Origin: Candidatus Latescibacterota bacterium
GTDB lineage: Bacteria > Latescibacterota > UBA2968 > UBA8231
NCBI GenBank assembly: GCA_965243025.1
Contig: CBDETY010000003.1
Location: forward strand, 1,760,001-1,824,000
Direction of reading: 5' to 3'
DNA length: 64,000 nt
The translations under genes were made by a program, and so were the position numbers. Each line of letters opens with the position of its first letter. Within the stretch, counting starts at the first letter, position 1. Of this stretch, positions 17,309 through 31,795 are shown in pieces. The notes beneath the pieces are model-generated. The model was given only the letters and a program-made list of their open reading frames with translations, was not told the origin of the DNA and searched no databases.

Positions 17309-19702
17309 ATGGTTACGACCACGCACGTATCCAGTGCCGCATCTCCGAACCCCGGCCATCGGCCCTCATCGCCGGCGGCAATGGAATCCGGGACGGATGG
17401 TTCTTCACGAATTCTGCGGATACCGAACCCTGCCATGTTTCCGAAAGTAGCTGAAGAAGTCTCGAACTCGGTCGAGAAGGAGGGCATCTCCTTCATCTTC
17501 GAAGCGCGCTCGCTTTCCGCTGTCGTTCGCTATATATACACCCCTCTCGAAGGCAATCTCTCCGACATCGAGGTTGAGATCAACAACTCCGAGGCGATCA
17601 AGTTCGCCGAGGGGGGCGGCATTGCGATCGAGATGGGCGGAAAGATCTGGTCAGCCGACGATGAAGAGGTCGAGCGGCACTTCGTTTCATGTGAGCCTGT
17701 GGGCGACTGCATCGAGGCGAGGTGGCATTGGAAGCACGGGGAAGAACTCGCCGATTTCCTGTACCGCATCCGAATCCATCAGAAGTCGCTCGTAGTCGAA
17801 CTCGAAGGCGGCAACGGCAAGGCAAGCGGTGTCGATCTCGGGTACGTTTCCGGGGCCGTTCACCCACGCGTAATCCAGGTTCCCTATTTCTCCTTCGGCG
17901 ACGGGTCGCCGCTCCTGCTCGCCACCTCAGGGGTGTTTGTCTCCAGTGTCCTGGACTGGAGCGAAACCGCTGCCGCGCAGATTTACGCCCCCCCTGCCCA
18001 CGATCCGTCGCATGAGATTCGGCTCGGCGGGGGATGCTTCTACCATCCGGCCTCCGACGGCCGCCGGCGAGCGCTGCGCGAACGCTGGATTCTGACCGTC
18101 TCACGCCAGTTCGAGGAGGTCCTTCCGACCATCCCGGTACGCCAGCGCCCATCAGGGAGCGCGGAACTCGACGACCTCGTCTGGTACCAGGTTCCGGCTC
18201 TTCCCCCCTCCGAAGAAGCCTACGTTGAGGTTTACGAGCAGCTGCGGTCGTTCAAGCAATGGGGCCTCGAACAGCTTCTCGTCAACCATCCCGCCGATGT
18301 ATGGGAAGACGGCCTCGGTATCTCGCTCGGGGGCTCCGAGGCCAAGGGGGGAGACGACGCCCTGCTCGAATACCTCGAAGCGGTCGAGGACCTCGGTTAC
18401 AGATACACCCTGGCTTCAGGGTACACGGAGTTCTCTTCGGAAACAGAAGGCTGGGACAAAAGCAGTGCCGGCCTCGGCTCGGACGGGAATCCGATCGCCA
18501 GCGGCGGCAACCGTTACCTGCTCAAGCCCTCCGCGGCGAACGACACCGCAAAATCGCATCTGCCGACGCTGTTTCAGCGTTTTGAAGGTGCAGGCGCCTT
18601 CGTCAGTGGTCACGCCGCCGCCCCGCCGTCGAGCCGAATCGATTATGACTCGAACACCCTGGACTCGGCGAGTTTTTCCAAGTCTCTCGACCAGGAGCGC
18701 CGGCTGCTTGAGGGGCTTCAGGAAATGGCCCGAGACTCATCGCGCCTGATCGTAGGCGAAGGCGGCAGCCATTGGATGTACGCGGGTCTGCTCTCCGGAT
18801 ACCTGGCCGGCCTTTCCGGACCGAATCCGTACCGAATCCCGCTCCTGCTCGATTTCGACCTCAAGCTGCTGCACGGAGCCCATGTCAACGCCGGGGTGGG
18901 AACGACCGGACTGTTCTTTGGCAAGAATCCTCCCCCCGTTTCCGAGCGCACAAGCCGCAGCGCCTGGCTCGATCGCTACATCGCCACCACTGTTGCGTAT
19001 GGACATGCCGGAGTCTTGCCCGAAATCGATGACTGGGGCCTGGCCGCGGTGATGAAAACCTACTACCTCCTGGTGAAACTTCAGAACCAGTATCTGAACA
19101 CGGAAGTCGAGTCAGTTCTCTACCATCGCGACGGCAGTATGCTCGAAGTTGCCGAGGCCCTGGTTTCCGGCGTCTATGAAGACAGCCAGGTCGAGGTGTT
19201 GTATCGAAACGGGCTGCGCGTATGCGTCAACGGCAGCTGGTCAAACGATTGGACGGTCGAGCACCAGGGCAGGGAGTACAGGCTTCCCCCGGCTTCCTTC
19301 CTCGCCCATGCCCCGGATGGTCTTCTCGTCTTTTCAGCCGACCAGGGCAACGGGCGTATCGATTTTGCGGATTGCGGTGATTTCTTCTATTGCGACACCC
19401 GCGGAGAGCGAGCTTCCCTGGGCCCGGTCTCCCTTTCGGGAGCAGCCGCCGTCAGAACGGAAGCCTGGCAGATTGACGTCTATCCCATCGAATGCGAAGG
19501 CGACATCGAAATCAGACCCGAAAACCTGTGGCCTGACCGCAGGATGCCGCGTCTTCGCATCCTCGCCTTCCAGGAGGACGAGGACCAGCCGCAGGTGATC
19601 GCAGCAAACGTCTCGGCGGCATCTGTTACCCTGGAGCCCCGCGAGGGGATATGCAAATTCCGAATCACCCTTCCGGAATGGATGGTCGAACCGGGGAAGT
19701 AG
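17309..19702 (+). CDS. Large hypothetical protein, possible glycoside hydrolase-like (GH101/GH129-type) barrel
   Basis: 797-aa ORF with natural composition and no signal peptide. Motifs KGGDDAL, GEGGSHW, DFDL, AYGHAG. True start may be 17436. Confidence 0.7.
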   Translation: MVTTTHVSSAASPNPGHRPSSPAAMESGTDGSSRILRIPNPAMFPKVAEEVSNSVEKEGISFIFEARSLSAVVRYIYTPLEGNLSDIEVEINNSEAIKFAEGGGIAIEMGGKIWSADDEEVERHFVSCEPVGDCIEARWHWKHGEELADFLYRIRIHQKSLVVELEGGNGKASGVDLGYVSGAVHPRVIQVPYFSFGDGSPLLLATSGVFVSSVLDWSETAAAQIYAPPAHDPSHEIRLGGGCFYHPASDGRRRALRERWILTVSRQFEEVLPTIPVRQRPSGSAELDDLVWYQVPALPPSEEAYVEVYEQLRSFKQWGLEQLLVNHPADVWEDGLGISLGGSEAKGGDDALLEYLEAVEDLGYRYTLASGYTEFSSETEGWDKSSAGLGSDGNPIASGGNRYLLKPSAANDTAKSHLPTLFQRFEGAGAFVSGHAAAPPSSRIDYDSNTLDSASFSKSLDQERRLLEGLQEMARDSSRLIVGEGGSHWMYAGLLSGYLAGLSGPNPYRIPLLLDFDLKLLHGAHVNAGVGTTGLFFGKNPPPVSERTSRSAWLDRYIATTVAYGHAGVLPEIDDWGLAAVMKTYYLLVKLQNQYLNTEVESVLYHRDGSMLEVAEALVSGVYEDSQVEVLYRNGLRVCVNGSWSNDWTVEHQGREYRLPPASFLAHAPDGLLVFSADQGNGRIDFADCGDFFYCDTRGERASLGPVSLSGAAAVRTEAWQIDVYPIECEGDIEIRPENLWPDRRMPRLRILAFQEDEDQPQVIAANVSAASVTLEPREGICKFRITLPEWMVEPGK

Positions 19703-21768: not shown

Positions 21769-22326
21769 CTATTCCGGGGACGAGAGCATTTCCTCCATGA
21801 AACGGACAATATCCCTGAATGAAATGTAACCGACCGGAATCCCGTCCTCGTCGACCAGTGGGACATGGCGGAAACCGTGAATCCCCATCAGATGCAGGGC
21901 ATGGCTGATGGGATCGGATGGTTTGAGCGCTGACGGTCCAGGCGTCATCAGGCTCTCGACCGGGATGGCGGGGAGGTTTTCAATCAACCCCACCACCTTG
22001 TAGAGGACGTCCCGTTCGGTAAAAATACCGGCAAGCTCACCGCTGTTCCCGGTCACCAGCACACATCCCATGTTGCGGCCCTTGAGACGCGATATCGCTT
22101 CCTCTACGGATGTCTGCAGTTTTACGCATTCTGCCGGTCGCGGGTTCAACTCGAGCAGGGGACGCGTAAAGATGCTGGTCTCCGCCGCGGTCTCGACATC
22201 CTCCATGTACTGCTCGGAGAGGCTCTGGTTGCACTCCTCGCAGACATCGGTTCCGGCGATGTTGTCGTACCCGCACGCAGGACAGATGGCACCCTGGCTT
22301 TCGACATTTCCGGAAAATCCCGTCAC
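21769..22326 (-). CDS. CBS-pair protein with N-terminal zinc ribbon
   Basis: CPACG...CEEC followed by CBS motifs GIFTERD and GFRHVPLVD. Confidence 0.85.
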   Translation of the reverse strand: MTGFSGNVESQGAICPACGYDNIAGTDVCEECNQSLSEQYMEDVETAAETSIFTRPLLELNPRPAECVKLQTSVEEAISRLKGRNMGCVLVTGNSGELAGIFTERDVLYKVVGLIENLPAIPVESLMTPGPSALKPSDPISHALHLMGIHGFRHVPLVDEDGIPVGYISFRDIVRFMEEMLSSPE

Positions 22327-22566
22327 TGCGCTGTCCCATCCAGGTGTTCTTCCCCGGCAGATGGCGAGCTCCCGGGTGTGAAGGCTCCCCGCTCACAGGG
22401 CGCCCGGGCGAGTGCCGGGGGCTGACCGCAAGCAGGGCCAACGCGGCCAGCCGCGGTGAATCGGCGCCAGGATTTCAAGGTCTGGATGGGGCAGAGCGAC
22501 AGAAACCGGGTGCCGGATTCCCGCCGCCGAAGCTCCGGCCTAGGCAAGATCACTGAGCCACTCGAA

Positions 22567-22598
22567 CCGGTTTTCCCGGAGAACCCCGGGAAAATCGG
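22567..22598. other. Inverted repeat downstream of korB
   Basis: ccggttttcccgg / ccgggaaaatcgg, 13-bp stem with one mismatch, no U-tract. Confidence 0.45.
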
Positions 22599-22611
22599 GG
22601 GCTGTCGGCCA

Positions 22612-23634
22612 TCAGATTTCCTCCCAGGTATCGGCGCTGTGCAGAAGACTGTTCAAGTCGCCCTCTCCGTTTTGCTCTATGGCCGTCTCTACCTGCGCTG
22701 TCAGGAGATCCGTGTATGCCGGTTTTTCCACGGAGCGAAGGATGCCGAAAGGCAACGGGAATTCCGGGTTCTCCATACGCGACAGCATGTACGCATAGCT
22801 GGTATTTTCCACCGCTTCCTCGTGCACGATCAAGTCACTCTCGCTCACTCCGTTGCCCAAAGCCACCACCTCGGGATGCTGGCCGCTCATGCGCACACCC
22901 ATGTCCCGGTCCTGGCCGAAGACCAGGGGCTGGCCTTCCTCGACGAAAACGATATTGTCTTCTCGCACATGGGTGTCCGTGGTGTGCTGCCATGCGGTCG
23001 GATGGTAGACTACACAATTCTGAAAAACCTCGACGAACGCGGTTCCGCTGTGCTCGGCCGCACGACGCAACACCTCGCTGAGGTGCTTGGTGTTGGTATC
23101 CTGGGTGCGGGCGACAAAGGTGGCCTCGGCTCCAATCGCCACCGAGATCGGCTGCAGGGGATAGTCGATCGAACCCATCGGGGTCGATTTCGTGCGGTGA
23201 CCGGTCAAGGATGTCGGGGAGTACTGCCCCTTCGTCAGGCCGTATACCCGATTGTTGAAGAGGATGATTTTCAGGTCGACGTTGCGCCGCAGGCAGTGCA
23301 ACAGGTGATTGCCCCCGATCGACAGCCCGTCTCCATCCCCGGTGATGACCCAGACACTCAGGTCCGGGTTGACCGCTTTCAGCCCGGTTGCAATTGTCGG
23401 CGCCCTGCCGTGGATGGAGTGTATTCCGTACGTGTCCATGTAGTAGGGAAACCGGCTCGAGCAGCCGATGCCGGAGACGAAAACGATCTTCTCCCTGGAA
23501 ACACCCACCTCGGGCAGTATTTTCTGCATCTGTGCCAGAATGGCGTAGTCACCGCATCCGGGACACCATCGCACCTCCTGGTCTGACACGAAGTCCTTTC
23601 GCGTCAACTTGGTTTCAGCAACTACCTCACTCAT
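22612..23634 (-). CDS. korB: 2-oxoacid:ferredoxin oxidoreductase beta subunit
   Basis: WCPGCGD, SGIGCSSR, GDGDG TPP motif, YGLTKGQYSPT. Confidence 0.93.
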   Translation of the reverse strand: MSEVVAETKLTRKDFVSDQEVRWCPGCGDYAILAQMQKILPEVGVSREKIVFVSGIGCSSRFPYYMDTYGIHSIHGRAPTIATGLKAVNPDLSVWVITGDGDGLSIGGNHLLHCLRRNVDLKIILFNNRVYGLTKGQYSPTSLTGHRTKSTPMGSIDYPLQPISVAIGAEATFVARTQDTNTKHLSEVLRRAAEHSGTAFVEVFQNCVVYHPTAWQHTTDTHVREDNIVFVEEGQPLVFGQDRDMGVRMSGQHPEVVALGNGVSESDLIVHEEAVENTSYAYMLSRMENPEFPLPFGILRSVEKPAYTDLLTAQVETAIEQNGEGDLNSLLHSADTWEEI

Positions 23635-23657
23635 GTCGTATTCCTGACGGCGGTTTC

Positions 23658-25532
23658 TCACTCCAGTACGTCATCGATTTTGGCGGCAATCTCCCGGATC
23701 TGGAACGGCTGCCCCTGCACCTTGCTCAACGAGATAACCCTTACCGGGTAACGCCCCTGAATCAGCAGGGCCAGCTGCCCCAGATTCAATTCCGGTACCA
23801 AAACCTGGCGGTAACGGCCGAGGACGTTTCCGAGATTGCGCGGGAACGGGTTCAGATAACGCAGGTGGGCACTGGCTACCGACTTGCCCTCAGCGGCCGC
23901 TTGACGAACCGCCGTTTTGATCGCTCCGAACGTACCTCCCCAGCCCAACACCAACAAATCGGCCTGATCGGGGCCTTCGACTTCCAGTTCGGGGATGAAA
24001 TCGGCGATGCCGGCTATCTTTTGCGCCCTCCTGGCGATGATTTCCTCGTGGTCGAGTGGAGCATACGACACATCCCCGGTACCGTCCCGCTTGCCGAGAC
24101 CGCCAATGCGGTGCTCCAGCCCCGGGGTTCCCGGCAGGACCCACGGTCTCGCCAGAGTCTCGGAGTTTCTCATATAGGGTTGGTAACCTGAAGGGTCGGT
24201 GCGGTGCTCGACGACCATCGGTTCGATCTCGTCGACATCGGGAATCTTCCAGGGTTCCGAGTTGTTGGCGAGGTAGCCATCCGACAAGAGGTAAACCGGG
24301 GTCATGTAGCGTACGGCGATGCGAAAAGCCTGAAGGGCGAGGTCGAAACACTCCCCCGAGGTAGCCGCCGCGAGCACGGGGACCGGACTTTCTCCGTTGC
24401 GGCCGTACAAAACGGACAGCAGATCAGCCTGTTCGGTTTTTGTCGGCAGACCTGTGCTCGGACCTCCGCGTTGGACATCGATCACCAGCAGAGGAAGTTC
24501 CAGAGCGACAGCCAGATTGACTCCCTCGCTCTTTAGCGAGATTCCGGGACCACTGCTCGCGGTGGCGGCCAACGCCCCGCCGAAAGCGGCGCCGATCACC
24601 GATCCGATGGCGGCGATTTCGTCTTCAGCCTGAAATGTGCGGACGTTGAAGTGCTTGAGGGTGGACAGCTCCTCGAGTATGGGACTGGCCGGTGTGATCG
24701 GATAACTCCCGTAGAAGAGCGGCTTGCTTGCCTTTCTGGCGGCGGTCACCAACCCGAGAACAAGGGCTTCGTTGCCGGTTATGCGGCGGTACGTGCCGGG
24801 CTCCACGTGCGTGCGTCCGGGGACGCGCAGGCGCGACTGAAACGTCTCGGTTGTCTCGCCGAAATGGTAGCCCGCCTTGAGAGCGCGGGTGTTTGCCTCC
24901 ACGACCTGGGGATTCTTGCCAAACTTTCTCCGGTAAAAATTCAGAGTCGTTTCGAGCGGCCGGTCGAACATCCAGAAAGCCAGCCCAAGCGCAAAGGCAT
25001 TTTTGCACAAGTCCTTTTGCTGGTTCGACATGCCATCGATGCCCTCGAGCGCCCTGCGCGTCATGGAGGTCAGGGCGACCTCATGCAATTCGTAGCCGTT
25101 GAGGGAATCCCCATTGAGCGGTGACTCGGCGTATCCGGCTTTTCGCAAGTTGGTTTTTGTGAAAGCATCGCTGTTGGCGATGATGACCCCTCCCGGCTCC
25201 AGGTCTTCCAGGTTTGCCCTGAGTGCCGCCGGGTTCATTGCCACCAGAACCTGGGGTTGATCCCCTGCCGTGAAGAGATCGGAAGAGCCGAAGTGGACCT
25301 GGAAGCCGCTCAGGCCGGGAATCGTCCCTGCAGGTGCCCGGATTTCCGCCGGGATATCGGGAAAGGTACTGACGTCGTTGCCGAAAACCGCGGAGGTGTT
25401 GGTGAACTGCTCCCCCGTCAACTGCATTCCGTCTCCGGAATCCCCGGAGAAACGGATGACGACGGATTCGCGGGTTTCGGCCCCTTCATCTTTCCCCGAG
25501 GGATGCAGCTTGGAAGGCGCCGACTCTGCCAT
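23658..25532 (-). CDS. korA: 2-oxoacid:ferredoxin oxidoreductase alpha subunit (gamma-fused)
   Basis: SGDSGDGMQL, YPITPAS, QAEDEIAA, QRGGPSTGLPTK. Confidence 0.93.
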   Translation of the reverse strand: MAESAPSKLHPSGKDEGAETRESVVIRFSGDSGDGMQLTGEQFTNTSAVFGNDVSTFPDIPAEIRAPAGTIPGLSGFQVHFGSSDLFTAGDQPQVLVAMNPAALRANLEDLEPGGVIIANSDAFTKTNLRKAGYAESPLNGDSLNGYELHEVALTSMTRRALEGIDGMSNQQKDLCKNAFALGLAFWMFDRPLETTLNFYRRKFGKNPQVVEANTRALKAGYHFGETTETFQSRLRVPGRTHVEPGTYRRITGNEALVLGLVTAARKASKPLFYGSYPITPASPILEELSTLKHFNVRTFQAEDEIAAIGSVIGAAFGGALAATASSGPGISLKSEGVNLAVALELPLLVIDVQRGGPSTGLPTKTEQADLLSVLYGRNGESPVPVLAAATSGECFDLALQAFRIAVRYMTPVYLLSDGYLANNSEPWKIPDVDEIEPMVVEHRTDPSGYQPYMRNSETLARPWVLPGTPGLEHRIGGLGKRDGTGDVSYAPLDHEEIIARRAQKIAGIADFIPELEVEGPDQADLLVLGWGGTFGAIKTAVRQAAAEGKSVASAHLRYLNPFPRNLGNVLGRYRQVLVPELNLGQLALLIQGRYPVRVISLSKVQGQPFQIREIAAKIDDVLE

Positions 25533-25624
25533 GGAGGAGCTACTCCTGCCGATCGGAGGAGAATGAAAGGAGAGGGTACCGCTGATCCACATCCAGTCCC
25601 CGGGAGCCCGCGCAGGCCATCACC

Positions 25625-26092
25625 TCACGCACCTTCCCGTGTTGTCGGAATCATCTCGGGATCCGGGGGCAAGTTGTAGATCTCTCGGGGAAAATGGTCG
25701 GTCAGAAACGTTATCATTGCCTGTTGCGACAGATTGCCGATCACGGCACCGGATTGGTCGCGGACCGGGACGTTTCGGTAATCGCCGGCGTTCATCAGCT
25801 GCAGGGCGCGACCGACCGATGTGTCGGACGTAACTGTCTGCGGATCAGCCGTCATCAGGTCATCGACCACCTGGTCGAGGGCGGACGGGTTGTCCGCCAC
25901 CTTGAGCAGAACGTCCCGTTCGGTGAAAATTCCGATCAGGCCGTTCCCGTTCTGAACCAGGATGGCACTGACTCTGCTTCGGCGCATCCGCACCAAGGCT
26001 TCACGCACTTTGGTGCCGGTCTTGACGGTTGCGAAAGAGGTGAGATCGAGGTGGGTTACTCGCTGTTGTTGCAGATCGATTTCGACGGTCAT
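25625..26092 (-). CDS. Stand-alone CBS-pair protein
   Basis: GIFTERDVL, YRNVPV; first gene upstream of korA. Confidence 0.88.
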   Translation of the reverse strand: MTVEIDLQQQRVTHLDLTSFATVKTGTKVREALVRMRRSRVSAILVQNGNGLIGIFTERDVLLKVADNPSALDQVVDDLMTADPQTVTSDTSVGRALQLMNAGDYRNVPVRDQSGAVIGNLSQQAMITFLTDHFPREIYNLPPDPEMIPTTREGA

Positions 26093-26222: not shown

Positions 26223-28532
26223 TCACTGAGGGGTTCCTTCGGCCACAATCCTCCCACCATCCGCTCCGCTCCCGGGGCCAAGAACCAGGATCCAACCAGC
26301 GTTTTTCACCAGCTCGGGATGGCGGTCCGCGACGATGACGGTGGCCTTTTTCGACACAATCTCAGCGAGCAGCTCCACCAAGGCGGATGCGTCTTCCGGA
26401 TGCGCTCCCGCCAGGGGAGCATCCAGGAGCAGCAGGTCCTTCTCCGATGCCCGCCAGAGTGAGGCTGCAAGTTCGAGCCGAAGCCTCTCGGCGAACTCCA
26501 GCCTGCCTGCAGATTGGCCCAATCGGTATCCCCCCATTCCAAATCTGGAGAGCGTATCCAGGGGCGGGGCAATTCTCCCTTCCCGACTGAAATGCCGCCT
26601 TGCCTCATCCACGGTCATGTCGAGGATATCGTTCGGCGAGCGGCCGCGGTGAGTGATCTTCCCTGCTTCCTCGGAGTACCTGCCTCCTTCACAGCCGGAA
26701 CAGGGTGCGGCAACGTCCGCGAGGAAATCGATGGGCAAGCGGAGCCGGCCGGTGCCTTCGCATATTCTGCAGCGTCCACCTGGCCGGTCCAGGTGAAACC
26801 ACCCCGGTTTCAGGCCGAGGGCTACGGCAGCCGGCTGCCTGGAGAACAGGGCGGCAACCGGCCCCAGCAGTCGGATTGTTTGAACCACTGGTTCATCTTC
26901 ATGGCCCCGCAGGTCCCGCAGATCGGTCAGGCGCCGGAGGCTTGCCGTCCTGGCGGAGGCAGGGCCACGCCCCGCTCCTGCGCGCCGCAGTCCGGAGCCG
27001 CCTCCTGAACCCCCAGGCCGTATCGATGGAGCGATAATGTCTCGCAGCAGGCTGGTTGCCCCGGCTCCGGAGCCTCCGGTCACAACGACAAGCCTTCCCG
27101 TGGGAATCTCGACGTCGACCGGGCCCAAGTTGCTGTTTCCCCGGTCTCCCGGATCGCGAATGATAATCGAGGTCGCCGACTCCCCTGGTTCCGAGCAGCC
27201 GACCAGGGGGACGGCCTTCTTTCCGCCAGCACCGCCGACTACCGGATCGGGAGCGGCAAAAACCTCCCCGTGTCGGAAAGCGGAAACCCGGTCGCTTGCG
27301 GCAAACACCGCCGGGTCATTGTCCAGTACAACCACGGTGTTGCCGCCAGCGGCCAGCTCTCTGAGGACCCGAATTGCCTCCCCCAGATGGGTCTCCTCGA
27401 GTCCAGAGCAGGGCTCCACCACGTAAAGGACGCCCGTCAGTGCCCTGCTCGCAGTCAGTGCAAGCACCAGCCGCAGCCACTCTCCCGAGGCCAGGTCCCC
27501 TGTCGACCGGTGCAGCGGAAGGTGATGCAGGCCGAAACCTGAAAGACGGGACAACATGGCGGTTGCTTCTTCCAGGGCCCCTTCAGAGAGCGCGTCCCGC
27601 ATGCCGGAGGTTGAGTCGCGCACATCGCCAAGCCAGGAGATGGCCCGATCAATTCCCATCTCCAGGACAGCCTGGAGGGCACTCCCGGCCAGGGAGAATC
27701 CGACGCCGCTGCTGTCGGATACAGCATCGTCGGTTTGCAGCAACCCCTCACCCGACACGCCGGGATATTCCCGGCCGCAGGAGGTGCAGGTGAGTTGCTG
27801 GTTCAGGGGTATGGTTGCTTTCTTCACGACCAGCAGGGAGCGCCCGCCCGACATGACACGGGCGGTCCGCAAGGCTTCGCCGATGCGACCGAGGGCGTCA
27901 TCGCCGATGTCGACGCGGTCGACCACTACCTCCAGAGTATCGCCGAGCTCTGCCACGGCTTCCGAATCGACCTCCTCACTCCGCCGGACCCCCCCGTTGA
28001 CCAGGATGCGGGGAAAGCCGGCTCGCCTGATTTCCTCGAGAACTGCTGCCGGCTCGCCCCCTGCCTGCAATGCTACCGGGGCTACAACGAGTGCCCGGGT
28101 TCCCGCGAATGAGTCGACGGCATGCCGCGCCGCCTCGGCAACCCCGTAACCCGTACAGCGGCCGTCGCATGCGGGACATGTACTCTCCCCGAGGCGTTCG
28201 AACAGCACCGAAGCCAGTTCTGTGAACCGGAGGAAATCCGCGATCGTTCGGCGCGGCGGGGTTCCCGGAAGCAGTATCGCCGGTGGAAGTCCGAGGATCT
28301 CCTCCACTTCGGCTTTCTGAAGACCGGAATGGAATTCGCGTTCGAATGCGGAAAGTGCCTGCAAGTAGCGCCGTCTTCCCTCGCGGTACAGGACATCGAC
28401 GGCAAGCGTCCGGGCACCGCCACCCGCCGGACCCGTGAAGCAATTGAGCTGGCCGAGCGGAATGTCGAGATCAACCCCTTGCAGACATCCTTCGCGTGCT
28501 CCGCGGATGGCGATCACACCCTTCTCACTCAT
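26223..28532 (-). CDS. UvrA-like protein with degenerate ATPase motifs
   Basis: IRGARE..L..VDLDIP, LYREGRRRYLQALS, Zn ligands CPAC/CTSC and CRIC/CSGC, C-terminal LGPGSGADGGRIVAEGTP. Walker A motifs read GPAGGGART and GGSGAGATS. Confidence 0.85.
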   Translation of the reverse strand: MSEKGVIAIRGAREGCLQGVDLDIPLGQLNCFTGPAGGGARTLAVDVLYREGRRRYLQALSAFEREFHSGLQKAEVEEILGLPPAILLPGTPPRRTIADFLRFTELASVLFERLGESTCPACDGRCTGYGVAEAARHAVDSFAGTRALVVAPVALQAGGEPAAVLEEIRRAGFPRILVNGGVRRSEEVDSEAVAELGDTLEVVVDRVDIGDDALGRIGEALRTARVMSGGRSLLVVKKATIPLNQQLTCTSCGREYPGVSGEGLLQTDDAVSDSSGVGFSLAGSALQAVLEMGIDRAISWLGDVRDSTSGMRDALSEGALEEATAMLSRLSGFGLHHLPLHRSTGDLASGEWLRLVLALTASRALTGVLYVVEPCSGLEETHLGEAIRVLRELAAGGNTVVVLDNDPAVFAASDRVSAFRHGEVFAAPDPVVGGAGGKKAVPLVGCSEPGESATSIIIRDPGDRGNSNLGPVDVEIPTGRLVVVTGGSGAGATSLLRDIIAPSIRPGGSGGGSGLRRAGAGRGPASARTASLRRLTDLRDLRGHEDEPVVQTIRLLGPVAALFSRQPAAVALGLKPGWFHLDRPGGRCRICEGTGRLRLPIDFLADVAAPCSGCEGGRYSEEAGKITHRGRSPNDILDMTVDEARRHFSREGRIAPPLDTLSRFGMGGYRLGQSAGRLEFAERLRLELAASLWRASEKDLLLLDAPLAGAHPEDASALVELLAEIVSKKATVIVADRHPELVKNAGWILVLGPGSGADGGRIVAEGTPQ

Positions 28533-28782
28533 TGCCCCTAACGGCCCCTCCTGCAATCTCGGACAATACCCCTCGATTCATACGGGTTCCCTCCGCCTGC
28601 CCCATGGCAGCCCGTTGATAAAGTTGCTCTGCAGGCGAGGCCGAGTCATGGCGGTCGAAGACAAGGCGCGCGACCGAGTCGAATCGAGGGATTCGGGGAG
28701 GGAGCATAACGCCGGATTCGACCGCCAGGGCCGGCCGCAGCCCGGATGGACTTTTTCAACGGGCTGATAGGCATCGGGTGTC

Positions 28783-29888: not shown

Positions 29889-30117
29889 TGTCCCGTCGCA
29901 GAAATATCTCGACATCGGGACGCCGATCCATTGAGGGGAAAAATCGCGGTTTAATGAAACCCTCATCCGGTGCGATTTTTCCCCTCAATCCCGGCTCACG
30001 GCGTTGCCTTCGATGGCCGTACACCCTCGGTACGACTCGCTCAGGCGCCTTGTGAGCCGGGCGCCCCGGCATTCCGATTCTGTCAATCTGTCTCTGCGAC
30101 GGGACACCAGCTTCCTG

Positions 30118-30960
30118 GTGCGGGCGGCTCTACCCTTCCTCGTCGCGGCGCTGCCGCTCAGGGGCATTGCGGGGGAAACCCCAACTGCTCCATTCCCTCA
30201 CCAAATCCTCGACCGCGTCCTCAAGGAGCACGTCGCTGACACAGGTGAGGTAGATTACCGCGCTCTGCAGTTACAGCAGCACGACCTCGCCGCCTACGTC
30301 GACAGCCTGGCCCTGGTCAGCCCGAAGTCCCACGGCAGTCGATTCTCAGGAACCGGAGACAGACTCGCCTACTGGATCAACGCCTACAACGGCCTGGTCC
30401 TGAAGGGGGTGGTTGCGGCGTATCCGGTGGCCAGCGTAATGGCGATCGTCACCGAGGGGTGGTTCTTCAGGGAACAGAAGTTCGTGGTAGGCGGAGTGGA
30501 GATGACCCTCGATCACCTCGAGAACCGGATCATCCGTCCGGAATTCAGGGATGCCCGTATCCACTTTGCCATCAACTGCGCGGCAGCGAGCTGTCCGCGG
30601 CTCGAGAATCGCGCCTTTGACGGTCCCACCCTCGAGCAGCGCCTCGAAGCGGCGACGAAACGCTTCTCCCGTACTGCTTCCCACGTACGTATAGACCGGG
30701 ATGCGCGGATCGTGTACCTGTCGAAAATCATGGAGTGGTTCGCCCGGGACTTCCAAGCGGATTCTTCAGCGCCGAACCAGAACGGACACGGGGCCCTGAG
30801 CCCGCAGCTACGCTTCCTCCTGCCCTATCTGCGGCCGAGCGACGCGGAATACCTCAGGGGGAATCCCGACATTGCCGTAACCTTTGTCGAATACGACTGG
30901 GCGTTGAACGACAGAGTGTATCCCGACCCTGAACCGGACCGGGATTCGGGGGCTAATTGA
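30118..30960 (+). CDS. DUF547 domain exported protein
   Basis: LAYWINAYN, DARIHFAINCAAASCP, LSKIMEWFARDF, YDWALN. Start uncertain. Confidence 0.85.
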   Translation: MRAALPFLVAALPLRGIAGETPTAPFPHQILDRVLKEHVADTGEVDYRALQLQQHDLAAYVDSLALVSPKSHGSRFSGTGDRLAYWINAYNGLVLKGVVAAYPVASVMAIVTEGWFFREQKFVVGGVEMTLDHLENRIIRPEFRDARIHFAINCAAASCPRLENRAFDGPTLEQRLEAATKRFSRTASHVRIDRDARIVYLSKIMEWFARDFQADSSAPNQNGHGALSPQLRFLLPYLRPSDAEYLRGNPDIAVTFVEYDWALNDRVYPDPEPDRDSGAN

Positions 30961-31795
30961 AAAACGGGTTGTTCGTTTTTTCTTCCCCCACGGTCGTCGC
31001 CGGCCCATGCCCGGGGTAAAGGATCACCTGGTCTTCCAGCGCGAGGATGCCTTCGCGAACCGCTTGGCGCTGCCCTTCGTAGGCGACGCGGCTTCGCGTT
31101 CCCCCGAGGGATCCGGCAAACAGGGCATCCCCCACAAATGCGAAATGGTCGTGGACGATGGTCATCCCTCCCGGTGTGTGACCGCCCGTGGCGGTCACTG
31201 TGAACTGGAGATTGCCAACCGTCACAATCTGCCCTTCTTCCAGTTCACCTTCGATCTTGGTGCGCAGATTCCCGAGCATTGGGGAATCCGCACGACTGAT
31301 GAAGGCGGGAGCACCTGTCGCCTGACATACCTCGGACAGCGCCCCCGTATGGTCTCCGTGGCCATGCGTGAGAAGCACTGAGACAATGCGGAGATCCAGC
31401 GTCTCTACGGTTTTCAGTATTTTTTCCGCCTCGAATCCCGGGTCGATGACCGTTCCCTGTCCGGTTTCGGCGCAGCCAACGACGTAACCGTTCATCAGGA
31501 AATCGCGGCCGAGCACCAGCATCTCCACGACCGCCCCGGCGACCGGACGCCCTGCCGGGAACAGCGGAAAAAACCGTTTACCCGCACTCGCCCGGAGTTT
31601 GTCGCGAGCGAGGCCCAGGATGTCGGCCAGGCGGTCAACCGCCTCGACGTGCGGGGTCAGCCGATACTCCTCGATCCGGTTCAGATCTTCCTCGCTCAGC
31701 CCGGAAAGACGGGCGAGCCGCGCTGTAGACATCTCCTGCCCGCGACGAGCTTTACCGACCACGTCCCCGAACTCGTCCTCAAGCTGCATGTACAT
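30953..31795 (-). CDS. XRE-type HTH fused to MBL-fold (glyoxalase II-like) hydrolase
   Basis: N-terminal ARRGQEMSTARLARLSGLS..L.RIE; THGHGDH, GHTPG, GDALF, PGHG. Confidence 0.85.
   Translation of the reverse strand: MYMQLEDEFGDVVGKARRGQEMSTARLARLSGLSEEDLNRIEEYRLTPHVEAVDRLADILGLARDKLRASAGKRFFPLFPAGRPVAGAVVEMLVLGRDFLMNGYVVGCAETGQGTVIDPGFEAEKILKTVETLDLRIVSVLLTHGHGDHTGALSEVCQATGAPAFISRADSPMLGNLRTKIEGELEEGQIVTVGNLQFTVTATGGHTPGGMTIVHDHFAFVGDALFAGSLGGTRSRVAYEGQRQAVREGILALEDQVILYPGHGPATTVGEEKTNNPFFN

Follow-up and report, generated by a model that had tools for sequence, protein, structure and literature searches.

The question raised by this locus is why a UvrA protein should be kept by selection once both of its ATP sites appear to have decayed. 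The gene concerned lies on the minus strand of a 64,000-nucleotide stretch of a Candidatus Latescibacterota genome (assembly GCA_965243025.1, contig CBDETY010000003.1, positions 1,760,001 to 1,824,000 of the forward strand), referred to here as the window, and encodes a paralogue of UvrA, a protein of nucleotide excision repair (NER). An initial annotation had described it as intact and apparently a catalytically dead double pseudo-ATPase, and suggested a retained non-catalytic role, such as a UvrB/Mfd decoy, as the partner of canonical UvrA in a heterodimer or as a DNA-binding scaffold. Our preferred answer, still a tentative one, is that the protein is a functional UvrA-derived pseudo-ATPase, maintained by selection, which docks onto domain 2 of UvrB, and possibly onto that of Mfd, and serves as an accessory protein or regulator.

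26223..28532, minus strand: coding sequence of the UvrA paralogue, 769 amino acids (aa), assigned by UvrA homology (ATG at 28532, TGA at 26223-26225)

The reading frame runs from ATG to TGA without interruption, and an alternative TTG start at 28556, 8 codons 5' of the ATG, would give 777 aa. The described open reading frame (ORF) of about 770 aa collinear with UvrA was thus recovered, with every quoted motif in its place. The protein matches TIGR00630 with an E value of 2.6e-111 and 373.4 bits, short of the curated cut-off of 729.8, and NF001503 with 378.5 bits, below the cut-off of 1147 (E values for the NCBIfam UvrA equivalog range from ~1e-111 to 1e-113); the whole-protein score therefore reaches only about half of the curated cut-off for a class I UvrA. 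Pfam matches are confined to the UvrB-interaction domain and a fragment of ABC_tran, and the closest solved structure is Thermotoga maritima UvrA (3pih; E = 6e-98). An AlphaFold2 model built on 38 homologues (pLDDT 82.7, pTM 0.76) has the three-dimensional fold of UvrA, Foldseek retrieving with it the UvrA chains of UvrA-UvrB complexes (TM 0.74-0.77; E = 4.5e-53). Judged by these matches, the paralogue is an unmistakable but aberrant UvrA. A reading as a defence system was rejected, as PADLOC returned partial ABC-type matches only (mad3, residues 637-768; mad8, residues 465-501), which amount to generic similarity between nucleotide-binding domains (NBDs).

The genome (6.8 Mb) encodes, elsewhere, a double UvrA, a third UvrA, one UvrB, UvrC and Mfd, so that the canonical uvrA whose presence had been left to be confirmed does exist, as a fused double gene accompanied by a third copy. 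The main UvrA is a 2044-aa ORF (G000:C3:6248402-6254017; loci L001, L002 and L044) that carries two full UvrA units, of 1348 and 1192 bits, a layout that recurs, in ORFs of ~1890-1990 aa, among relatives that include other families of the class. The third UvrA (L003, G000:C3:2702404-2705115) is more divergent (886 bits, LSSGE signature), and keeps the Walker A GKS, the equivalents of R216 and E222, and the Q-loop. Four UvrA_inter domains are found in the genome, one of them in the paralogue, and the UvrB_inter domain (domain 2) occurs in UvrB and Mfd only.

With the window protein as query, a full-length collinear match (33-72% identity) was obtained in 22 of 24 further genomes from this family, while the paralogue of genome G018 lies in two pieces at contig ends and genome G011 (90% complete) gave no match to this query; 16 genomes from other families of the class were matched only through their ordinary UvrAs. 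A profile of the paralogue clade, at E <= 1e-160, detected it in 68 of 168 genomes of the phylum, namely the window genome and 67 of the 75 other family genomes, and in none of 92 genomes spread over 13 other families of that phylum. The same profile, run against 1.84 billion library representatives, gave at least 22 single-unit proteins (711-812 aa) with scores of 768-1000 bits, and canonical or fused UvrA units with at most 512 bits, both among the matches listed. Orthologous ORFs could be extracted uninterrupted from all 23 loci, together with one ORF cut at a contig end, and dozens of genera, at 31-40% identity, retain an intact ORF of ~710-880 aa. In one genus (g14, ~25 species, e.g. L081) the orthologue ends ~15 residues earlier and the profile alignment crosses a TAA; we read this as a C-terminus that is probably naturally shorter, the ORF being intact in the one locus of this kind that was examined (L021). 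Of the stop-flagged loci, L014 and L021 were extracted, and both gave uninterrupted ORFs. A tree of 53 rows chosen from ~270 (LG+G4, quick search, SH-aLRT support only) placed the paralogues in a monophyletic clade (SH-aLRT 100), set apart by a long branch from all canonical and fused units, and did not identify the parent UvrA.

The state of the two ATP sites was compared in two sets of sequences: a motif alignment of 50 rows, consisting of 45 clade and 5 canonical rows (40 of the clade rows span the N-terminal P-loop), and a second set of 55 clade rows mapped to Escherichia coli UvrA numbering and set against 9 canonical rows. The corresponding features of the window protein are as follows.

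28407..28433, minus strand: degenerate Walker A of NBD-I, GPAGGGART (residues 34-42), with Ala40 (GCC) for Lys and Arg41 for the Mg-binding Ser
27480..27494, minus strand: signature I, LASGE (residues 347-351), near consensus
27411..27425, minus strand: degenerate Walker B of NBD-I, YVVEP (residues 370-374)
27312..27326, minus strand: H-loop I region, LDNDP (residues 403-407), without His
27051..27077, minus strand: Walker A of NBD-II, GGSGAGATS (residues 486-494), with Ala492 (GCA) for Lys in the genus-level subclade only
26964..27017, minus strand: Gly/Arg-rich, low-confidence linker (residues 506-523), which with the stretch that follows stands in for the canonical Q-loop II
26487..26501, minus strand: degenerate signature II, LEFAE (residues 678-682)
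26415..26435, minus strand: Walker B of NBD-II, LLLLDAP (residues 700-706), with Asp704 retained and the catalytic Glu replaced by Ala705
26316..26333, minus strand: H-loop II region, VADRHP (residues 734-739)

Ala40 (GCC) and Ala492 (GCA) were verified at the two Walker A Lys positions, as were the YVVEP, LLDAP, LASGE, LEFAE, DND and DRH motifs that had been quoted. The N-terminal Walker A Lys is found in all 5 canonical rows and in 0 of 40 clade rows; in the larger set, the equivalent of E. coli K37 is Ala (n = 30), Ser (n = 10), Cys (n = 4) or another residue, and Lys in none of the 55, while at the +1 position canonical UvrAs have the Mg-binding Ser and the clade rows include Arg (n = 44), His (n = 4) and Lys (n = 1). 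Degeneration extends in the clade rows to Q-loop I, Walker B-I and H-loop I. Signature II, which in the head-to-tail arrangement of ATP-binding cassette (ABC) proteins completes the proximal ATP site, reads L-E/D-x-x-E in every clade row and LSGGE in none of 44. Since all five elements are degenerate, the proximal site is, by its motifs, dead in the whole family.

Of 44 rows, 28 have GK[ST] at the C-terminal Walker A and 16 have GAGATS; the GAGATS rows are precisely those that share 65% identity or more with the window protein. The distal Lys is present in 21 of the 22 library representatives, the sole Ala member belonging to the window's subclade. As the Ala492-type rows form one group with 100% support, and its sister group has GKT, the distal Lys was lost once, on a single branch. 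The reported parallel loss at both sites, and with it the conservation of both changes among orthologues that was to be examined, therefore holds in part: it is family-wide at the N-terminal site (Lys in 0 of 55) and confined at the C-terminal site to a genus-level subclade. The catalytic Glu of this site is retained in 3 of 44 rows only (in the 55-row set the equivalent of E. coli Glu858 is outnumbered by each of Ala, Arg, His, Asn, Asp and Gln), no clade row shown has the Q-loop II segment DQSPIGRTPRSNPATY, other sequence standing in its place, and the H-loop II His is variable across the clade; for these reasons, ATP hydrolysis at the distal site is improbable throughout the family. What is left is the Walker B-II Asp, in 44 of 55 rows, together with a signature I that is near consensus. 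The available part of Manelyte et al. 2010 (PMC3025350) describes E. coli K37A and K646A as disrupting the proximal and the distal ATPase, respectively, which agrees with the statement that Lys-to-Ala changes in Walker A disrupt UvrA ATPase activity. From the motifs we infer that the paralogue has no ATPase activity.

The ATP sites are not the only parts that have been lost.

27711..27749, minus strand: junction at the site of the lost insertion domain and Zn module 2 (residues 262-274, a low-confidence loop in the model)

The insertion domain (PF17755) gave no match in the paralogue even at E <= 1, and residues 271-349 and 353-411 of E. coli UvrA, a span that includes the insertion domain within the limits of the delta290-400 deletion, have no counterpart. 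The cysteines of Zn module 2 (E. coli C277, C280, C406 and C409) are absent from 55/55 clade rows. The suspected deletion of the insertion domain is thereby substantiated. In the signature domain II, the DNA-binding arginines R712, R722, R724 and R730 of E. coli UvrA correspond to A560, V570, L572 and W578 in the window protein; across the 55 clade rows these positions are, in the same order, most often Ala (n = 41), Arg or Gln (n = 17 each), Arg (n = 32) and Trp (n = 44), so that two of the four arginines are lost in nearly the whole clade. Over the signature-II region, the net charge averages +4.8 (3 to 8) in the 9 canonical rows versus -2.1 (-7 to 3) in the clade, the same stretch of the window protein having a net charge of +1. 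As far as the accessible text of the two reports goes, an E. coli UvrA mutated in all four arginines bound no DNA and supported neither global nor transcription-coupled repair (TCR) (PMC3025350), and deletion of the insertion domain abolished DNA binding by Ecm16 (PMC10192343). Because the insertion domain, Zn module 2 and the basic arginine patch are gone, a canonical role in DNA binding or damage sensing appears unlikely, and the suggestion of a DNA-binding scaffold is disfavoured, the window protein having lost the four arginines and the positive patch.

Despite these losses the gene is retained rather than decaying. Comparison with its two genus-level orthologues gave dN/dS values of 0.26-0.31 at dS 0.15-0.66, and between 0.10 and 0.47 in each of nine regions. 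The values for control genes of the same genomes were the following.

Double UvrA: dN/dS 0.16-0.18
Third UvrA: dN/dS 0.23 (one pair, versus G002)
CBS neighbour: dN/dS 0.08-0.15
korA: dN/dS 0.04-0.08
Sigma factor: dN/dS 0.06-0.11

The paralogue has a dN of 0.17 versus 0.03-0.09 in its neighbours, and its omega is ~2-5 times theirs. With dN/dS of 0.26-0.31 against 0.04-0.23 in the controls, and all regions below 0.5, the gene evolves faster than housekeeping genes, yet is clearly constrained. This purifying selection, together with orthologues in 67 of 75 family genomes, agrees with the proposal of a retained gene; the dN/dS near 1 that would have marked an incipient pseudogene was not observed. 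In its motif losses, retained fold and dN/dS, the protein corresponds to a pseudo-ATPase derivative of the ABC type, which is a descriptive class with no curated family.

What has been retained is the part of UvrA that contacts UvrB, together with two of the zinc modules.

28155..28178, minus strand: first knuckle of Zn module 1, C119-x2-C122-x3-C126 (CPAC at 119), with an extra clade-invariant Cys
27837..28124, minus strand: UvrB-binding domain PF17760 (residues 137-232), with invariant G172, R175, D205, R206, R216 and R225 and a charge-inverted helix, EALRTARVM
27777..27788, minus strand: second knuckle of Zn module 1, CTSC (C249, C252)
26691..26771, minus strand: Zn module 3, CRIC/CSGC (C588, C591, C611, C614), clade-invariant

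The UvrB-binding domain scores 47.4 bits with PF17760 (cut-off 23.3) and the cysteines of Zn module 1 are present in 55/55 rows, so that the zinc pairs CPAC/CTSC and CRIC/CSGC and the intervening UvrB-binding segment are kept, as had been reported. Across 38 clade sequences 35 columns are invariant, nine of them cysteines, and the surroundings of Zn module 3 (GGRC and G-x-G) are also among them. The invariant residues of the UvrB-binding domain are P152, G172, R175, D205, R206, R216, R225 and G230, with E219 nearly so. Cys126 is invariant in all clade rows, where canonical UvrAs have Ile, Leu or Val; the resulting CxxCxxxC knuckle may be compatible with zinc, an iron-sulfur cluster or a redox switch. 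In E. coli, the R216A/E222A pair has been used to break the surface of UvrA that interacts with UvrB and Mfd (PMC3025350 and PMC3458569, in the portions available), and the equivalent of R216 is Arg in 55/55 clade rows.

A complex was predicted from residues 115-260 of the clade alignment and UvrB domain 2 (residues 150-255), using 22 UvrBs of the same genome group. With the genome's own UvrB domain 2 the prediction reached a median score of 0.62, against 0.02 for the highest of three controls; the score mark used is attained by 58 of 80 solved complexes and by 2 of 110 mismatched pairs. The three runs agreed in at least 97% of contacts, with a partner pLDDT of at least 83. On the paralogue side, the predicted interface comprises residues 146, 166, 169-170, 172-174, 184, 186, 204-208, 216, 219-220 and 223, and thus contains the clade-invariant G172, D205, R206 and R216, while R222 and R225 are absent from the named contacts. 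On the UvrB side it comprises residues 167, 192, 194-197, 199, 210, 213-216 and 227-231, including the invariant arginines of FRVRGD. The modelling of a complex with UvrB, which had been put forward as a check, therefore gave a clear score, possibly by recall of solved complexes. Beside the predicted interface, UvrB position 225 (locus L039 numbering) is occupied by Asp in most genomes of the paralogue's family (12 of 14) and by His in most of those from outside it (7 of 8); it was considered as a co-evolution signal and rejected, as it reflects a single phylogenetic split.

Our preferred reading joins these observations as follows. The paralogue would be unable to run the canonical ATP-driven damage search and handover, and would act without hydrolysis, as a protein that docks onto UvrB domain 2 and possibly also onto the homologous domain 2 of Mfd. 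As an accessory protein or regulator of excision repair it might hold, titrate or redirect UvrB. In most members the distal site may still bind nucleotide and serve as a conformational switch; in the window's genus, the K-to-A change suggests that nucleotide binding at this site has been given up as well. A more specific and rather doubtful extension pictures a nucleotide-independent, UvrA-shaped 'anti-UvrA' adaptor, whose remodelled positive helix captures UvrB or competes for Mfd domain 2, thereby either setting the split of UvrB between global and transcription-coupled repair or delivering UvrB to a substrate unseen by canonical UvrA. It would be the mirror image of the ATPase-dead UvrB module within Mfd. 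The fifth Cys beside Zn module 1 could render such docking redox-sensitive.

Several observations weigh against docking onto UvrB: (i) at the position of the contact Glu, E222, which 9/9 canonical rows have, 48 of 55 clade rows carry Arg, and the contact helix, ESFETALEL in canonical UvrAs and EALRTARVM in the paralogue, is inverted in charge (clade, +3.2, range +2 to +5; canonical, -1.4, range -2 to -1), and therefore the partner or the mode of binding may differ, (ii) the genome's own UvrB domain 2 keeps the usual arginines, (iii) the complex score indicates likeness to solved UvrA-UvrB complexes, not binding, and may reflect memory of the model, because such complexes have already been solved (3fpn, 3uwx, 9gy7 and 9ga3), (iv) the paralogue was not found in 8 of the 75 family genomes (58-98% complete), and is therefore dispensable in some lineages, and (v) the neighbouring genes of the window offer no pointer to DNA repair. 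The suggested UvrB/Mfd-binding role thus remains plausible, given conserved interface residues and the score of the complex model, and is weakened by the Arg at the E222 position.

The inverted helix charge, the extra Cys and the non-repair neighbourhood keep alive, as the foremost if improbable rival, a repurposing of the scaffold outside NER, with a new partner or ligand, for example in a redox or metabolite role connected with the following neighbours; the inverted helix and the extra Cys of Zn module 1 would then be a new functional site.

25625..26092, minus strand: CBS-domain gene adjoining the 3' end of the paralogue gene, a conserved neighbour
23658-25592, minus strand: 2-oxoacid:ferredoxin oxidoreductase alpha subunit (korA), conserved neighbour
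22612-23661, minus strand: 2-oxoacid:ferredoxin oxidoreductase beta subunit (korB), conserved neighbour
21769-22326, minus strand: second CBS gene
30953-31795, minus strand: gene for a helix-turn-helix and metallo-beta-lactamase-fold protein, with a homologue upstream of the paralogue in 16 of 23 loci
30004-30960, plus strand: DUF547 gene, with a homologue upstream of the paralogue in 12 of 23 loci

The co-directional order paralogue, CBS, korA persists even at 31-40% protein identity (CBS in 18 and korA in 20 of 23 loci), and a non-NER role would also fit the loss of the DNA-binding and ATPase features as well as the clade novelties that canonical UvrAs lack, namely C126 and R225, both invariant, and R222 (48/55). 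However, the unrelated upstream genes (metallo-beta-lactamase fold, DUF547 and the sigma-70-family gene, which is divergent and lies upstream of the paralogue) are syntenic too, so that the adjacency may simply be inherited. The gap between the paralogue and CBS genes measures 66-181 nt across loci, and in the window contains a promoter-like site and a weak terminator-like stem (5 pairs), hits of which kind are no commoner than in shuffles. Because of the upstream synteny and the promoter-like site, the neighbourhood is read here as a conserved order of genes rather than an established operon. Moreover, it is the invariant residues that make the UvrB contacts in the model, which also speaks against a role outside NER. 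In the window, CBS, korA, korB and CBS stand on one strand (21769-26092, minus), the two CBS genes flanking the kor pair. A 797-aa ORF (17309-19702, plus strand) has no Pfam family at E <= 1e-5.

A dedicated TCR UvrA, recruited by Mfd to stalled RNA polymerase and loading UvrB without damage sensing, is less likely still. It is attractive because E. coli UvrA without the insertion domain or the proximal ATPase favours template-strand repair: in the available part of PMC3025350, the delta290-400, K37A and G502D proteins show an enhanced template-strand bias, K646A is weak but not null, and the UvrB-binding domain is essential. The paralogue joins the loss of insertion domain and proximal ATPase with a retained UvrB-binding domain, and Mfd is encoded in the genome. 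Against this, the four-arginine mutant, whose positions are A, V, L and W here, is dead in TCR according to the same source, the distal site of the paralogue lacks the Q-loop and, nearly everywhere, the catalytic Glu, and the accessible portion of PMC7835731 has the UvrA distal site taking part in engagement with the complex of Mfd and RNA polymerase. We give similarly little weight to a non-catalytic partner that would modulate canonical UvrA in a mixed dimer, the heterodimeric regulator of the initial annotation. The overall UvrA fold and the NBD cores are retained, and it is a common theme for active paralogues to have pseudoenzyme partners; but the main UvrA of this genome and its class is a single two-unit chain, which plausibly satisfies its own dimer interface.

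It is very improbable that the protein is still an ATPase or NTP-binding enzyme acting through non-canonical residues such as the nearly invariant +1 Arg of Walker A-I (Arg41 equivalent, 44/55); the glycine-rich loops and the near-consensus signature I would suit such an activity, but each site has lost its Lys, Q-loop Gln, catalytic Glu and partner signature, and often its H-loop His. That the gene is a functionless incipient pseudogene we consider hardly credible and reject, for the raised dN and omega, and the failure to find the gene in eight family genomes, are outweighed by a dN/dS of 0.26-0.31, family-wide conservation with intact ORFs in dozens of genera, omega below 0.5 everywhere and 35 invariant columns.

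With class I UvrA (E. coli; T. maritima, 3pih) the paralogue shares the collinear tandem-ABC fold, Zn modules 1 and 3, the UvrB-binding domain with R216, and conserved VVDR and QRRY-type segments. It differs in lacking the insertion domain, Zn module 2, the basic DNA-binding surface of signature domain II and two functional ABC sites (A40, A492, YVVEP, LLDAP, LEFAE, no Q-loops), and in having Arg at E222 and an extra Cys in Zn module 1. Like the class IIa UvrAs (Ecm16, DrrC and Deinococcus radiodurans UvrA2), it stands beside a canonical enzyme and has lost one accessory domain. Those proteins, as far as the available text of PMC9328131 and PMC10192343 describes the class IIa/IIb members, are without Zn module 1 and the UvrB-binding domain, have retained the insertion domain, bind DNA and depend on ATPase activity, as stated for Ecm16; the paralogue is the reverse each time, having the UvrB-binding domain and Zn module 1 and no insertion domain. 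On these characters the family belongs with neither class I nor class II.

The E. coli delta290-400 and K37A mutants resemble the paralogue in having lost the insertion domain or the proximal ATPase while keeping the UvrB-binding domain, and retain TCR better than global repair (Manelyte et al. 2010, PMC3025350, available part); they differ in that they retain the DNA-binding arginines and the distal catalytic residues, both of which the paralogue has lost. [quoted passage not shown] It is, however, derived from UvrB, fused within a translocase and directed at UvrA, whereas the paralogue is a free-standing derivative of UvrA whose binding partner would be UvrB or Mfd. We found no ATPase-dead UvrA paralogue bearing a UvrB-binding domain in the full-text literature, a scope that leaves aside supplements and the classification of UvrA homologues by Marszalkowska et al. 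2013.

Two further groups of sequences were noticed. Protein clusters of 600-790 aa with UvrA_inter and ABC_tran occur in Myxococcota, Thermodesulfobacteriota and Fibrobacterota, and are leads by their domain content. Certain metagenomic fused double UvrAs (P0198, 839-1609; P0160, 847-1611) have a short second unit with degenerate motifs, e.g. VLDRT, EVSSGE and VLEVPA; as these motifs read, partial degeneration of a UvrA unit also occurs inside fusions.

Described class II UvrA paralogues are active ATPases without a UvrB-binding domain, and the present family is the opposite. It appears to have kept the UvrB-docking module across a whole bacterial family while shedding, as we infer, ATP hydrolysis, along with the insertion domain and the DNA-binding patch. 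The members that keep the distal Lys, which are the majority, and those of the window's genus form a natural pair for the question of a nucleotide switch. If the binding to UvrB or Mfd is true, the paralogue would be a rare natural pseudoenzyme regulator in bacterial nucleotide excision repair, and a natural separation-of-function variant in which partner recruitment is set apart from damage sensing.

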